From UHGV virus genome UHGV-0095783: DNA of 23,905 nucleotides. One strand, 5' to 3'. The position numbers were made by a program, and so were the translations under genes. This DNA is from a virus. Shown here in pieces: positions 5,212 to 11,101 of this stretch (position 1 is the stretch's first letter; each line of letters begins with the position of its first letter). A model generated the notes under the pieces. The model did not search any database. It worked only from the letters and a program-made list of their open reading frames with translations, and was not told the origin of the DNA.

Positions 5212-5860
5212 TGGCAGCAAATACCGAAATATTTGGGTAGTTGGCGATCTGCACGGATGCTACACGAACCTGATGAAAAAACTGGAGACGATTGGATTCG
5301 ACACCCAAAAAGACCTGCTTATCTCGGTTGGCGATTTGGTCGATCGCGGTACAGAGAACGTTGAATGCCTGGAATTAATCACATTCCCCTGGTTCAGAGC
5401 TGTACGTGGAAACCATGAGAAAATGATGATTGATGGCTTATCAGAGCGTGGAAACGTTAATCACTGGCTGCTTAATGGCGGTGGCTGGTTCTTTAATCTC
5501 GATTACGACAAAGAGATTCTGGCTAAAGCTCTTGCCTATAAAGCAGAAGAACTTCCGTTAATCATCGAACTGTTGAGCAAAGATAAAAAATATGTCATCT
5601 GCCACGCCGATTATCCTTGTGACGAATACGAGTTTGGAAAGCCAGTTGATCATCAGCAGGTAATCTGGAACCGCGAACGAATCAGCAACTCACAAGACGG
5701 GATCGTGAAAGAAATTAAAGGCGCGGACACGTTCATCTTTGGTCATACGCCAGCAGTGAAACCACTCAAGTTTGCCAACCAGATGTATATCGATACCGGC
5801 GCAGTGTTCTGCGGAAACCTCACATTGATTCAGGTACAGGGAGAAGGCGCGTGGGCATAA
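5189..5860 (+). CDS. ninI: Ser/Thr protein phosphatase (lambda NinI / PPase-like)
   Basis: Metallophosphatase motifs GDLHG, GDLVDRG, GNHE; translation from [25 protein letters not shown] matches lambda phosphatase as recalled. The track ORF opens 9 nt earlier at 5180. Confidence 0.9.
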
Positions 5861-6339
5861 GAGAACTAAACCTCACCAAAGAACAGCACGATTGGCTGAA
5901 TGGCTGGCTTGAACTGTGGGGGGCATGGGTTTATTCAGGTCGTCTGGAAAAGCGCATGAGCAGCGTAATAGCTAAGTTCATGGAGAGCGTAGAGCCGGGA
6001 AGAGTTATGACAAGGCCAATGTGTAATGATGATGATGGAATGTTGATTTCTCAGGTCGTCGATTCCGTCATGTACATTGACAAGAAAGCCTTTGGCATCC
6101 TCCTCAGCTACTACGCTCATGGCTCTTCCAAGCACGCCATTGCATCTTACTATCATCGCGTCGCAAGACCTCGCAAGATGTTATGCCGTGGCGGCGGGCG
6201 CATTCAAAAACCATCGCTCGCAACCTGTCGACGGGAAGTTGACGAAATCCTTAATGCCTCGTTGTTTATGATTTACCCGGTTCTGGATAGTGCGTTTAAA
6301 AATCGGAAACGTGTAGAGAAAATTAAACATGTAGCATAG
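5851..6339 (+). CDS. Q: late-gene antiterminator Q-like protein (non-lambda allele)
   Basis: GTG start overlapping the ninI stop. Located between ninI and the lysis cassette. WGAW, P-x-C-x-DDD and YY motifs resemble E. coli prophage QuuD-type antiterminators as recalled; does not resemble lambda Q. Confidence 0.65.
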
Positions 6340-6431: not shown

Positions 6432-6506
6432 GGGTCAGTCGTATAAAGGTCATTACGGAAGGCTGTTAACCTTCTTATCGTGGTTCGAGTCCACGCTGTC
6501 CCGCCA
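6432..6506 (+). tRNA. tRNA-like element, anticodon GUU (Asn) by hand folding
   Basis: 75 nt. Acceptor stem 6432-6438 with 6496-6502 (6/7 pairs), U8, A14, GG in the D-loop, anticodon stem gaagg/ccttc with loop CTGTTAA (anticodon GTT at 6465-6467), 4-nt variable loop, T-arm cgtgg-TTCGAGT-ccacg, discriminator G and encoded CCA. Anticodon loop and T-arm match E. coli tRNA-Asn as recalled. Folded by hand only. Confidence 0.45.
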
Positions 6507-7109: not shown

Positions 7110-7542
7110 CGGAATTGCTCTGATAAAAAAATTTGAAGGTTGTCGGCTGACTGCTTACCCCGACCCCGGAACGGGAGATGCGCCGTGGACCATCGGCTAT
7201 GGCTGGACCCATCCGGTTGACGGAAAGCCAGTAAAGCGCGGTATGACTATCGACCAGCAAACCGCTGACAGGCTTCTGAAAACAGGGCTTGTTGGTTATG
7301 AGAATGACGTGCTGAAAGTTGTCAGGGTGAAGCTGACACAAGGCCAGTTCGACGCACTGGTGTCGTTCGCTTACAACGTTGGGTCGCGTGCTCTTTCCAC
7401 ATCTACACTGCTGAAAAAGCTGAATGCTGGCGATATAAAAGGCGCGGCAGATGAATTTCTGCGCTGGAATAAATCAGGCGGAAAGGTGATGCCGGGGCTC
7501 ACGAATCGCCGCAAGGCAGAGCGAGCTCTGTTCCTGTCATGA
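7093..7542 (+). CDS. R: endolysin, true lysozyme (GH24, P22 gp19-like); not the lambda transglycosylase
   Basis: 149 aa; [11 protein letters not shown]…GYG and C-terminal [11 protein letters not shown] parallel P22 lysozyme as recalled. Start overlaps the end of S. Confidence 0.9.
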
Positions 7543-8006
7543 TTAGCGCACTGGTTAAGCGTTACTGGCTGCAGTTGCTGGTGCTGGCGTTAATCGGCGC
7601 ACTGGCTTTCTTCGTGAACCACTACCGCGACAACGCCATCACTTACAGAGACCAGCGCGATAAGGCCACTGAGAAACTCCTCCTGGCGACCGCCACCATT
7701 AAAGACATGCAGACCCGCCAGCGTGATGTCGCTGCACTGGATGCCAAATACACAAAGGAGCTTGCTGATGCTAACGCGACTATCGAAAGTCTCCGTGCTG
7801 ATGTTTCTGCTGGGCGTAAGCGCCTGCAAGTCGCCGCCACCTGTGCAAAGTCAACGACCGGAGCCAGCGGCATGGGCGATGGAGAAAGCCCAGGACTTAC
7901 AGCAGATGCTGAACTCAATTATTACCGTCTCCGAAGTGGAATCGACAAGATAACCGCGCAGGTTAACTACCTGCAGGAATACATCAGGACGCAATGCCTG
8001 AAATAA
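7539..8006 (+). CDS. Rz: i-spanin Rz
   Basis: N-terminal TM segment, then [11 protein letters not shown]…[22 protein letters not shown] resembling lambda Rz as recalled; ATGA overlap with R. Confidence 0.85.
7768..7953 (+). CDS. Rz1: o-spanin Rz1 (lipoprotein), embedded in Rz in the +1 frame
   Basis: ATG 7768 preceded by SD aaggag (7755-7760). [20 protein letters not shown] has a lipobox with Cys, and the mature part is Pro-rich ([14 protein letters not shown]…). Lies entirely inside Rz. Confidence 0.8.
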
Positions 8007-8038
8007 TTTTTTTGCAAATCACAAAGTCCATTTAATGA

Positions 8039-8060
8039 GCCTCGCAATGCGGGGCTTTTT
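8039..8060 (+). terminator. rho-independent terminator 1 downstream of Rz
   Basis: 7-bp stem gcctcgc/gcggggc, 3-nt loop, T5 run at 8056-8060. Confidence 0.6.
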
Positions 8061-8067
8061 GCAATAA

Positions 8068-8092
8068 ATGCGTACCGCAACGCATGTTTTTT
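8068..8092 (+). terminator. rho-independent terminator 2 downstream of Rz
   Basis: Perfect 6-bp stem atgcgt/acgcat, 6-nt loop, then gtttttt (8086-8092). Confidence 0.6.
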
Positions 8093-8207
8093 ACACCGAA
8101 CCTGCCCCTTTGGAATGGGCCTTTGAGGATACCAGTTAGTGCTGGCGAGCCTCGGTGGGCTGGTTTCCTGTGCGGCAAAGGTTCATTTCAAAGAGTAGGT
8201 ACACGCT

Positions 8208-8705
8208 ATGAAATCATTAACCCTCTTCAATCAACCAATTCGTATCGGTGAAGATGGCATGATCTGCCTCACTGATATGTGGAAAGCCAGTGGTAAAAGT
8301 GAATCTGAATCGCCTTACCACTACCTGCGAAACAAGCAGACCAAAGAGTTCTTAGCCGAGCTGGAGAAAAACCACGAATCTGTGGTTTTTACTGAGCGCG
8401 GTGTACACGGTGGAACATATGGCGGGAAGTTTGTTGCTTACGATTATGCGGCTTGGTTAAACCCCGGGTTCAAGTACGCGGCCTATAAAGTCCTCGATGA
8501 CTACTTCACCGGAGAACTTCAGCATCGCAACAGCTTAAGTGCGCAGCTCAACATGAAATGTCATGAGTTTGACCAGAAGAAAGACATGGCGAGCTTCTGC
8601 GGACAAGGGCTGGCAGCATGGCGCTATACGAAGCCAGTGTTGGTCGCTGAGATTAACTCCCTGGCTAACCAGCTGCAGATTACGATCCCCGGGCTTCCGG
8701 GATGA
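8208..8705 (+). CDS. KilA-N domain-containing protein (accessory gene)
   Basis: 165-aa ORF; N-terminal region (…IRIGEDGMICLTDMWKASGKSES…YLRNKQTKEFLAEL…) fits the KilA-N DNA-binding domain pattern as recalled. Lies between the lysis cassette and cos, where lambda has bor on the opposite strand. Confidence 0.55.
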   Translation: MKSLTLFNQPIRIGEDGMICLTDMWKASGKSESESPYHYLRNKQTKEFLAELEKNHESVVFTERGVHGGTYGGKFVAYDYAAWLNPGFKYAAYKVLDDYFTGELQHRNSLSAQLNMKCHEFDQKKDMASFCGQGLAAWRYTKPVLVAEINSLANQLQITIPGLPG

Positions 8706-8971
8706 GTGATCGTGTCATTGAATGCGCCTCCAGAGCGGGGCGCGACTTCTCAGAGTTCATGAAAGGCGAGAAGGGCATGATGGAAGCATTGGCCTCGGTG
8801 GATGAGTTTGGCGAGCAGCTGCGCCTCAACGGCTGTGTCAATCATCACTTTGTTAGCTACATGATGCGGAACTCGATCATGCAGGCATTCATGGACATGG
8901 CAAAAGCCGAGAGGAAAGAAGAGCGCCGGCGTAAGCGAGCGGAAGCAAAAGCAAAAGCAAAAGTGAAGTAG
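8702..8971 (+). CDS. hypothetical protein (89 aa) translationally coupled to the KilA-N gene
   Basis: ATG 8702 overlaps the upstream stop (ATGA). Highly basic/acidic C-terminal tail (KAERKEERRRKRAEAKAKAKVK). No recognised family. Confidence 0.5.
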   Translation: MSDRVIECASRAGRDFSEFMKGEKGMMEALASVDEFGEQLRLNGCVNHHFVSYMMRNSIMQAFMDMAKAERKEERRRKRAEAKAKAKVK

Positions 8972-8979
8972 CCATTACA

Positions 8980-9001
8980 AAGCCCATCTACGGGTGGGCT
9001 T
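8980..9001. other. stem-loop after the 89-aa gene (no U-tract)
   Basis: 7-bp stem aagccca/tgggctt with an 8-nt loop, 9 nt after the stop; no T-run on either strand. Confidence 0.4.
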
Positions 9002-9465
9002 GATAATGAAACCGGAATTTATTCTGGGCCACCAGTTAACGGCAGTACCACGAAACAACCCAAGCCAGTAAGTGGGGAAATAACACTGGCAGCCACTGAA
9101 AGATGAACCTCCTGCCTTATGGCAAAAAAGATTCTTTGTGGTGGCGGACTGATGGAAAGACATCGGTTATTGCAGAGGCCATTCAATGAGTGGTCTCGAC
9201 AATGGCTTATACCCTACACGGGATAACTTAACTGATATCCCTTTTAACGGATAAAGGTATTCAAGCCTGACACATCATGCGCTGTATCGTCGCCGTATTC
9301 CCGCATTAACCATGACCGTAGCCCGACGGGGAATTCCTTCTGCGTGAGTGTGCGGGAATAATCAAAAACGATGCACACCGGGTTATTAACGCGTCAACTG
9401 AACGCGGGGTTGCTCTTCATGTCAGCCAGTCCGGTGCAGGGGTAGAAGAAACCGGACGTTATGGT

Positions 9466-9876
9466 TTAGTGTGGAAACATTTGTGATGTGCTCTGTATGT
9501 TTTCAGTAAAGAGTAATGAATTATCAAAGGTATAGTAATATCTTTTTTGTTCGTGGATATTTGTAACCCACCGAAAAACTCCTGCTTTAGCAAGGTTTCT
9601 TCTGTATTCCTGAAATGTGATCTCTCTGGATTTCAGCTTATTAGAGGTCGTTTCTATAAGATGCCTATCCTTTGAAAATTTGACAGACACAATGTTTTTT
9701 AGGCCCTTTAATAACACTGTATTATCATTTTTTAATACAATATGAACATTCTCTGTGGCTAAATAGTAAATGTAATGTGAGACATTGTGACGTTTTAGCT
9801 CAGAATAAAACCATTGATAGTTTAAATCGTTTCGAACTTTATCAAATATTTGTTTAAAAATGACTACCTGATCCAT
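9466..9876 (-). CDS. DUF1398-like protein (E. coli prophage YbcV/YdfO family), AT-rich accessory gene
   Basis: Minus-strand ORF in a markedly AT-rich block. ATG at 9876 has SD GGAAGG 7 nt upstream, giving 136 aa; the track's 141-aa start at 9891 has no SD. Family call rests on recalled E. coli prophage proteins and the position beside cos. Confidence 0.55.
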
Positions 9877-9933
9877 AGATAAACCTTCCATGTGATATGA
9901 GGGGGCGTAGTCTGCACGATTATCTAAATTGCT

Positions 9934-10167
9934 TCAATCTGGTCTGACCTGTTTTCTGAGCAATTCAGTAATGTCACTCTTTTCTTTGTTTGCTTCAGGA
10001 GAAACTCTTTTTTCTGAGCACAGTCTCCGGCGGCAGGCTTCAATGACCCAGGCTGAGAAATTCCCGGACCCTTTTTGCTCAAGAGCGATGTTAATTTGTT
10101 CAATCATTTGGTTAGGAAAGCGGATGTTGCGGGTTGTTGTTCTGCGGGTTCTGTTCTTCGTTGACAT
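9934..10167 (-). CDS. small RHH-like protein (E. coli prophage YlcI/YnfO family)
   Basis: 77-aa minus-strand ORF, basic N-terminus MSTKNRTRRTTTRNIRFPNQMIEQINIALEQKGSGNFSAWVIEACRRRL consistent with a ribbon-helix-helix fold. Immediately upstream of, and co-oriented with, the DUF1398-like gene (57-nt spacer). Confidence 0.55.
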   Translation of the reverse strand: MSTKNRTRRTTTRNIRFPNQMIEQINIALEQKGSGNFSAWVIEACRRRLCSEKRVSPEANKEKSDITELLRKQVRPD

Positions 10168-10555: not shown

Positions 10556-11075
10556 ATGGAAGTCAACAAAAAGCAGCTGGCTGACATTTTCGGTGCGAGT
10601 ATCCGTACCATTCAGAACTGGCAGGAACAGGGAATGCCCGTTCTGCGAGGCGGTGGCAAGGGTAATGAGGTGCTTTATGACTCTGCCGCCGTCATAAAAT
10701 GGTATGCCGAAAGGGATGCTGAAATTGAGAACGAAAAGCTGCGCCGGGAAGTTGAAGAACTGCGGCAGGCCAGCGAGACAGATCTCCAGCCAGGGACTAT
10801 TGAGTACGAACGCCATCGACTTACGCGTGCGCAGGCCGACGCACAGGAGCTGAAAAATGCCAGAGACTCCGCTGAAGTGGTGGAAACCGCATTCTGTACT
10901 TTCGTGCTGTCGCGGATCGCAGGTGAAATTGCCAGTATTCTCGACGGGATCCCCCTGTCGGTGCAGCGGCGTTTTCCGGAACTGGAAAACCGACATGTTG
11001 ATTTCCTGAAACGGGATATCATCAAAGCCATGAACAAAGCAGCCGCGCTGGATGAACTGATACCGGGGTTGCTGA

Positions 11076-11101
<26 letters not shown>
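10556..11101 (+). CDS. Nu1: terminase small subunit Nu1
   Basis: 181-aa translation essentially identical to lambda Nu1 as recalled. Confidence 0.95.

Follow-up and report, generated by a model that had tools for sequence, protein, structure and literature searches.

An exchangeable module of terminator, structured leader RNA and KilA-N gene pair downstream of Rz in a lambdoid phage

The window examined here, a stretch of 23,905 nucleotides (nt) from the UHGV virus genome UHGV-0095783, carries two adjoining open reading frames (ORFs) on the + strand downstream of the Rz spanin gene: ORF-A (8208–8705), which encodes a 165-amino-acid (aa) protein with a KilA-N domain, and ORF-B (8702–8971), which encodes a protein of 89 aa. 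Both ORFs had been proposed in a first-pass annotation of this DNA, and both were confirmed at these positions. With a little better than even credence, we explain the pair as the payload of a mobile accessory module that belongs to the late operon, is gated by a terminator and a leader RNA, and sits in the rha slot behind Rz. Such a module would consist, in order, of the terminator or terminators, a leader of approximately 100 nt that pairs with the ribosome binding site (RBS), a protein of the Bro network, a coupled 89-aa helical protein and a 3′ hairpin, and it would be carried inside the late operons of temperate enterobacterial phages.

The leader (8100–8200, + strand) is located between the terminators and the ATG of ORF-A, and was predicted to fold into a long imperfect hairpin of approximately 100 nt with a minimum free energy of about –41 to –49 kcal/mol. 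Specifically, stem P0 (8100–8105/8195–8200) pairs an ACCUGC motif with the Shine-Dalgarno region GUAGGU (8195–8200), and the hairpin further comprises stems P1 (8108–8125/8176–8193), P2 (8126–8129/8166–8169) and P3 (8131–8137/8158–8164), together with a conserved bulge of 6 nt (8170–8175). The same fold was found in P22, ES18, phi80, P13374 and two other phages, despite 25–40% sequence divergence. In IMG/VR, a sequence-pattern scan yielded at least 120 loci; their leaders, 90 of them distinct, fall into about six sequence types, and every one ends close before a start codon (just 3′ of the stem in 31 of 31 non-redundant leader types).

A covariance model built on 31 non-redundant leaders matched positions 8093–8219 of the window with 123.9 bits on the sense strand versus 17.6 bits on the reverse strand, revealing that the conservation is strand-specific. 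Across 70 aligned sequences, 97.8% of the cells were paired versus 83.2% in shuffles, and compensatory changes were observed in 18 of the 24 leader base pairs. The resulting covariation score of 0.494 compared with 0.224 for shuffled alignments, with none of 500 shuffles scoring as high and slid controls remaining at or below 0.13. By its compensatory pairs, its strand specificity and its fixed position relative to the start codon, the leader thus qualifies as a conserved structured cis-RNA. Rfam 15 (including C4, isrK and the ribozymes) gave no match at gathering score, and nothing relevant at an E-value of 5 or better between positions 7900 and 9500. A coding explanation for the conservation was rejected, since TAG 8196 ends the frame that opens at GTG 8139, and phi80 has no more than a 3-codon ORF in its alignable region. 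A hammerhead-like reading of the conserved UGAGGA motif was also dropped, because the structure is a single hairpin and its core differs between leader types.

The leader precedes a variety of genes, encoding proteins of pRha, pRha+ORF11CD3, KilA-N, KilA-N+P63C, P22_AR_N+ORF11CD3, HNH_3 or T5orf172 domain content. The covariance model moreover detected divergent leaders beyond the reach of the sequence pattern: phi80 has a second copy before gp49, P13374 has one in front of the ant gene that lies between R and Rz, L005 and L006 have copies in their tail regions, and in L009 a copy precedes an ORF-B-like/T5orf172 gene. Outside the window, leader copies were placed at L012:4280-4387, L013:526-653, L005:1629-1754, L006:4325-4453 and L009:4028-4145. 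The leader therefore also occupies other late-operon sites, namely the R–Rz interval, tail regions and a position ahead of cos, and two or more copies are present in phi80, P13374, L077, L106 and L109, with up to 6 in E. coli genomes. When one genome per species was searched with the covariance model, the leader was found in approximately 52 species-representative loci, nearly all from Enterobacterales, the named genomes belonging to Enterobacteriaceae, Erwiniaceae, Yersiniaceae, Pectobacteriaceae and Morganellaceae. Three metagenome-assembled genomes labelled Nanosynbacter (L153), Collinsella (L181) and Cellvibrionaceae (L152) carry enterobacterial-like leader copies of 116–124 bits, and these contigs are probably mis-binned enterobacterial prophage DNA.

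With respect to the first payload gene, Pfam revealed a KilA-N domain (PF04383) in residues 9–101 of ORF-A (nt 8232–8510; 57.6 bits, cut-off 23.8), as the first-pass annotation had recognised, and in addition an ORF11CD3 domain (PF10549), which it had left unnamed, in residues 109–161 (nt 8532–8690; 50.5 bits, cut-off 25). The latter domain is found C-terminal to a Bro-network N-terminal domain. ORF-A belongs to PHROG 129 ('transcriptional regulator'), and 100% identical proteins in phages ECP1 and PhiR49_1 are annotated as 'KilA-N-ORF11CD3'. Over its last 66 residues, ORF-A shares 34% identity with the C-terminal end of P22 Rha, a protein that consists of pRha and ORF11CD3 when read from the conserved ATG. 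The pRha domain itself (Phage_pRha, PF09669) gave no match in ORF-A at E 0.1 or better, whereas P22-type payloads matched it at E 5e-21. Judged from these domain assignments, ORF-A is not a member of the Rha family, though it lies in the Rha slot and carries the Rha C-terminal domain. The shared slot and C-terminal domain therefore make ORF-A a domain-swapped counterpart of Rha, with KilA-N in place of the pRha N-terminal domain.

This domain exchange fits the Bro network, a set of domain-swapping phage DNA-binding proteins as outlined in PMC10111431 on the basis of Iyer et al. 2002. ORF-A contains two network domains, while the other payloads contribute pRha, P22_AR_N, P63C, ANT, T5orf172 and HNH_3; the same leader and the same C-terminal domain are thus combined with differing N-terminal domains. 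We consequently regard ORF-A as a predicted DNA-binding protein of the Bro network, and as a textbook case of it by its sequence. The ANT, P22_AR_N and P22_AR_C domains, which are present in other payloads or partners, were detected by Pfam in neither ORF-A nor ORF-B, and sequence searches of the PDB found no relatives of either protein. Unlike ORF-A, ORF-B has a domain outside the ten Pfam network domains of PMC10111431, and no Pfam model matched it. A version of the pair in the Actinobacillus pleuropneumoniae phage PP818812.1 has an ORF-A 96% identical to the E. coli one and an ORF-B that matches in its first 22 residues only, which suggests either that the pair crossed between bacterial orders very recently or that the assembly is mixed.

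The site of the cassette likewise points to Rha. Window positions 8094–8194 are 99% identical to the P22 leader and the annotated 5′ end of rha, and Rha-type genes occur at the same place, behind an alignable leader, in phi80, ES18 and the O104:H4 Stx phage P13374. By these alignments the site is the "rha slot" of P22, phi80 and ES18. The first-pass annotation had correctly placed the cassette between Rz and cos, and had missed both that this is a known rha locus and that ORF-A carries the C-terminal domain of P22 Rha. P22 rha (ORF201), phi80 rha and ES18 gp79 resemble the cassette in their slot after Rz and a terminator, their leader, the ORF11CD3 C-terminus and the late-operon orientation, whereas they differ by having a pRha N-terminal domain instead of KilA-N, and no homologue of ORF-B is present in P22 or phi80. 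In this regard, P22 orf80 was considered as an ORF-B homologue and rejected, as the two do not align. The annotated rha starts of P22 (L011:2246-2851) and phi80 (L012:2763-3317) fall within the leader hairpin and thus precede the ATG that is aligned in all phages; the matching frame of the window (8139–8198) is the one from GTG 8139 that TAG 8196 ends. These start codons are therefore likely annotated too far upstream, and the true P22 Rha probably measures 182 aa rather than 201.

Comparison of gene content at the locus revealed an exchangeable slot, occupied by the present pair, by rha (P22, phi80, ES18, P13374) or by a KilA-N+P63C gene with ORF-B (HK97). One sequenced version is hkbK/hkbL of HK620, which is uncharacterised, like gp73/HK97p61 of HK97, and constitutes the same pair at approximately 96% DNA identity. 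HK97 (gp73/HK97p61), HK022 and the mEp phages also have ORF-B after Rz, 85–97% identical over the first 54–66 residues; in HK97, however, its partner is a 242-aa KilA-N+P63C protein, the KilA-N domain of which is only 23% identical to that of ORF-A. The corresponding site behind Rz is the one where lambda has bor, and the pair displays the presence/absence pattern at one site that is characteristic of morons.

Homology with other phages begins at position 8000, 8094 or 8203 and ends at approximately 9008 or 9100, marking sharp module borders; with ECP1, PhiR49_1 and Stx phages it stops at 9008. The module is flanked by hairpins. Just past Rz, an intrinsic terminator (8037–8062, + strand) has a G+C-rich stem of 9 bp, an AAU loop and a U5 tail (folding free energy, dG, –14.1; z –3.5), and an identical stretch of 54 nt is found behind Rz in phi80, HK97, HK106 and the mEp phages, with several records annotating a terminator there. 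A second terminator (8068–8092, + strand) is a small AUGCGU/ACGCAU hairpin followed by GUUUUUU, which the terminator scan flagged and which is weaker (dG –6.9, z –1.5). Both tandem terminators claimed in the first-pass annotation are thus real. By eye, the counterpart of the second one in P22, phi80 and HK97 is a small GC hairpin that lacks a U run (alignment A2), and the second terminator may itself be part of the leader element instead of a terminator as such. The hairpin that closes the module downstream, previously placed at 8980–9001, proved real, strong and longer than thought (8973–9008, + strand; 5 + 9 bp; dG –20.6, z –6.2). It is no canonical + strand intrinsic terminator because it lacks a U tract, and the terminator scan of the window did not call it; it could also serve as an end for leftward transcripts.

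A promoter scan revealed no + strand promoter between 8092 and 8208. Similarly, a sigma-70-like match of at least 9/12 was present in none of 92 distinct contexts upstream of the leader, where shuffles predict approximately 6. A terminator-like hairpin with a T run was located within approximately 150 nt upstream of the leader in 92 of 101 contexts (versus 4% of shuffles), and the closest ORF upstream, counting those of 100 aa or more, was co-oriented in 107 of 110. In L006, moreover, the pair is embedded between the tape-measure and Dit genes, with the end of ORF-B overlapping the start of the next late (tail) gene. The Q gene lies upstream in the window, Q-modified polymerase reads through terminators, and a terminator with no promoter behind it suggests that the module would be transcribed by this polymerase only. 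The absence of a promoter, the upstream terminator and the co-orientation therefore point to a doubly gated module of the late operon and not to a defence unit expressed in the lysogen.

The latter view was that of the first-pass annotation, which read the pair as an independently transcribed moron, expressed in lysogens and serving lysogenic conversion, superinfection exclusion or a defence/anti-defence function, for example abortive infection by a BstA-like KilA-N protein with a partner. Its description of an insulated, non-structural, non-lysis accessory unit holds, given that the pair moves as a sharp-bordered module, and this accessory character, the presence/absence polymorphism where lambda has bor and the terminators upstream and hairpin downstream would all suit a moron. 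KilA-N is furthermore the N-terminal domain of BstA, a prophage-encoded, lysogen-expressed defence protein whose gene lies next to the repressor gene and which comes with a DNA element for self-immunity (PMC8585504), and PADLOC gave a weak, partial match of KilA-N to the candidate PDC-S22 (E 1e-8). BstA is nonetheless about twice as long as ORF-A and repressor-adjacent, whereas ORF-A stands in a late operon, has no BstA-like C-terminal region and gave no BstA-type defence match. PADLOC returned no match of note for ORF-B. Taken together with the missing promoter in the window and in the 92 related contexts, the late-gene strand that is kept almost everywhere, the overlapping stop and start codons in the tail-gene setting of L006 and the lack of a U tract downstream, this makes independent transcription in the lysogen quite unlikely, and the earlier interpretation as a whole is partly supported. 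Two prophage transcriptome studies (PMC7067206 and PMC12922286) do not cover the cassette, and a study of the phi24B ant gene was set aside as it concerns a different ant gene.

The start of ORF-B overlaps the stop of ORF-A in an ATGA (8702–8705), in agreement with the first-pass annotation, and ORF-B has no good Shine-Dalgarno sequence of its own. The protein had been called uncharacterised, which still applies: neither Pfam nor NCBIfam yielded a match, and it falls in PHROG 875 (E 4e-54), of unknown function. Its family comprises 138 clusters at 90% identity, the named members of which come from Enterobacterales genera, and an exhaustive profile search of 1.84 billion protein representatives found 21 members only. 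Alignment A1 contains 15 invariant columns, including a GRDFS.F..GEK ... GC.N block. AlphaFold2 produced a confident three-helix model (residues 3–20, 26–42 and 48–88; mean pLDDT 91.8), with a long, basic, KR-rich last helix at the C-terminus. The conserved residues across the 138 clusters and this model support the coding status of ORF-B. Among structures in the PDB and BFVD there were no neighbours below E 0.1, and only generic helical bundles were retrieved. A possible metal site (C8, C45, H48, H49) was rejected, since the distant relatives P0132 and P0135 lack these residues, and the longer "fusion" proteins P0001, P0002 and P0005 were read as frameshift or recombination artefacts and not as natural fusions.

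The upstream partner of ORF-B varies. It is a KilA-N+ORF11CD3 protein in the window and in L006, a KilA-N+P63C protein in HK97 (gp73), HK022, mEp234 and Klebsiella phages, and a pRha+ANT protein in a Rouxiella prophage, where it adjoins an Arc/Arc/Bro-N region resembling immunity I. Across these three architectures the junction with ORF-B is always tight, ranging from an 8-nt overlap to a 2-nt gap. Such retention of tight translational coupling behind very different partners might indicate a toxin-antidote pair, in which a KilA-N protein that is toxic (like P1 KilA or Rha) would be neutralised in fixed proportion by the coupled small protein. In line with this, ORF-B comes after each of the 16 complete ORF-A homologues of 165 aa in the IMG/VR sample, so that this ORF-A type never occurs there on its own; P1 kilA is among the matches, and Rha is described as harmful in PMC4936722. 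However, ORF-B is missing after most of the Bro-network payloads that the leader precedes, among them P22 Rha and other KilA-N proteins, and the ORF-B partners have no domain in common. The order of the genes, with the presumed toxin first and the dependent antidote second, is moreover unlike that of classical type II systems, and no match of either protein to a toxin or antitoxin family was found in Pfam, NCBIfam or PADLOC. We consider such a toxin-antidote pair improbable.

In the two distant relatives P0132 and P0135, the domain of ORF-B forms a fusion with a GIY-YIG-like domain (T5orf172/MUG113); one is encoded beside a KilA-N+P63C gene and the other between lysis and terminase genes. hhalign aligned ORF-B with the N-terminal domains of these T5orf172 proteins at 95–96% probability. 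In this respect ORF-B is reminiscent of CapR, a small, free-standing DNA-binding repressor that is the counterpart of the N-terminal domain in putative homing endonucleases of the T5orf172 type (PMC8096241). CapR and ORF-B are no homologues, however, and resemble each other in neither sequence nor fold: a Cys4 zinc motif lies between the beta strands of CapR, and ORF-B is modelled as all-helical.

This connection raises the alternative that the pair is mainly a selfish mobile cassette of the homing type, or what domestication has left of one, with little or no role for ORF-A and ORF-B in the phage life cycle. The terminator and the RBS-pairing leader would then keep the cassette harmless to its carrier, as is known for free-standing homing endonuclease genes. 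Homology of ORF-B to the T5orf172 N-terminal domain would be expected from such an origin, as would HNH_3 and GIY-YIG-like T5orf172 genes behind the same leader, the many insertion sites with sharp borders, and the nearly identical leader with different payloads in P22 and the window; the Bro network has also been tied to homing endonucleases (PMC8096241, PMC10111431). Neither ORF-A nor ORF-B contains a recognisable nuclease domain, though, and the 15 invariant columns of ORF-B, along with a pair that is intact in hundreds of genomes, argue for selection on function. On balance a cassette with little or no function seems unlikely to us. The proposal furthermore concerns origin and spread more than mechanism and is compatible with the late-operon module that we favour; in fact, both the selfish cassette and the toxin-antidote pair are compatible with the same anatomy.

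In the late-operon explanation, the module would have no promoter of its own and the terminators would exclude ordinary polymerase, so that only Q-antiterminated polymerase from pR′ would transcribe it, during lytic growth. The leader would subsequently limit or time the translation of ORF-A, a potentially harmful DNA-binding protein. The leader of lambda N contains a hairpin that is processed by RNase III, and such processing might be involved here as well; with approximately 29 stacked base pairs and an internal loop, the leader fits the RNase III-processed type of the lambda N leader in geometry only. Other structured phage leaders are known from Gifsy-1, where PMC4825925 describes IsrK and the anrP antirepressor mRNA, and hammerhead ribozymes flank accessory genes in prophage late transcripts (PMC3088659). 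In each of these cases a cis RNA structure stands directly before a gene of regulatory or accessory function within a long phage transcript, where it can control translation or cut out a single-gene mRNA. The leader described here differs from them in shape, being one long hairpin with a single asymmetric bulge that is conserved, and has no isrK, C4 or hammerhead match in Rfam. By analogy, it may act in the manner of the RNase III-processed lambda N hairpin or of the RNA elements that flank prophage accessory genes (PMC3088659).

ORF-B would be made in step with ORF-A through termination-reinitiation, and would act as its partner: it would be a domain for DNA targeting or an adaptor, or else moderate ORF-A. 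By analogy with Rha and antirepressor-type Bro proteins, the likely target would be DNA of the phage itself, of the host, or of co-resident phages or satellites. In this context, Rha blocks phage growth in IHF-deficient hosts, according to a statement in PMC4936722 that cites Henthorn and Friedman 1995, and a note in the phi80 record says the same.

A number of points weigh against this explanation. The scans test consensus-type promoters only, and weak, activator-dependent or alternative-sigma promoters would escape them. The IMG/VR sample was collected by sequence pattern and represents mostly post-Rz contexts, so the counts are not independent events. Likewise, the covariation alignment was fitted to the model, and the sampling pattern fixed several of its columns. 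The register of the Shine-Dalgarno pairing varies by leader type, and in some types this pairing depends on a 3-bp extension. Furthermore, the covariance model detects no leader before the HK97, HK022 and mEp234 versions of the pair (in HK97, none at E 1 or better). ORF-B also follows the pRha+ANT protein, so no single partner domain explains a specific contact between ORF-A and ORF-B. Finally, no IHF consensus site was found near the leader, which leaves the classical link between rha and IHF unexplained. On inspection by eye, a similar long hairpin with a CUGCGAG bulge is possible upstream of gp73 in HK97 (L003:1650-1780), and the HK97 leader may be of a more divergent type.

The cassette is by no means as rare as had been suggested. 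DNA identity is 98–99% for the copies in ECP1 and PhiR49_1 and approximately 94–96% for those in HK620 (hkbK/hkbL), Shigella phage Ss-VASD and several Stx phages. Among 5426 complete E. coli genomes, 388 contain a copy that covers at least 80% of the cassette. Everywhere it is annotated as a KilA-N protein plus a hypothetical protein, and literature searches on its function, including hkbK, hkbL, HK97 gp73 and PhiR49_1, gave nothing relevant. The cassette is thus a common, swappable and ordinary accessory unit. Literature searches also found no description of the leader, which as far as found is not noted in the Bro-network literature either.

Gene calls and Pfam revealed the layout of a lambdoid phage or prophage across the whole window, read rightwards. 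The gene order starts with cII (39–317), followed by the genes for a DnaB-like helicase, NinB, Dam, NinG and a phosphatase, then Q (5851–6339), tRNA-Asn (GTT; 6432–6506), the holin and lysozyme genes, and Rz (7539–8006, + strand; PF03245, E 3e-39) as the last lysis gene and upstream neighbour of the cassette. Rz contains an ORF embedded in the +1 frame (7723–7953, + strand) with a lipobox-like LLGVSAC motif, as expected of Rz1 (o-spanin). On the other side of the cassette, an ORF of 62 aa (8975–9163, – strand) has no Pfam match, and a shorter version of it is a hypothetical gene in PhiR49_1. Between the cassette and Nu1/cos lie two ORFs on the – strand, encoding DUF1398 (ybcV-like; 9466–9891) and DUF3950 (9934–10167), the arrangement of ybcV/ybcW in the E. 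coli K-12 prophage DLP12. Because their orientation opposes the late operon, these two ORFs are a better candidate for expression in the lysogen than the KilA-N pair. The 'head protein' label that PHROG gives to DUF1398 seems doubtful. Nu1 (10556–11101) is followed by terminase A, the head genes and the tail genes.

The cassette belongs to a known and poorly understood class, the Bro-network or Rha-type genes of temperate phages, and it shows that the rha locus of P22 and phi80, so far unexplained, represents an allele of an exchangeable slot that is widespread. In a broader and more doubtful proposal, the leader would constitute an undescribed class of cis-regulatory RNA, common to dozens of Bro-network and homing-endonuclease-like genes in Q-dependent late operons of Enterobacterales, where it would control how proteins dangerous to their carrier are translated or processed. 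ORF-B would then be an undescribed Bro-network domain that partners KilA-N-type proteins, and the module a late-expressed weapon or signal in conflicts among phages, prophages and satellites, which might for example shut down the replication of a competitor or induce neighbouring elements. ORF-B is a small domain that links KilA-N proteins with T5orf172 nuclease-like proteins, and this domain and the seemingly undescribed leader RNA are the parts of the module that merit experiment. The leader, which many such genes share, offers a testable handle on how phages hold potentially toxic genes silent up to the late phase. If the leader is indeed regulatory, hundreds of prophage genes would have to be re-annotated, and the old Rha/IHF phenotype would be open to re-examination at the RNA level.

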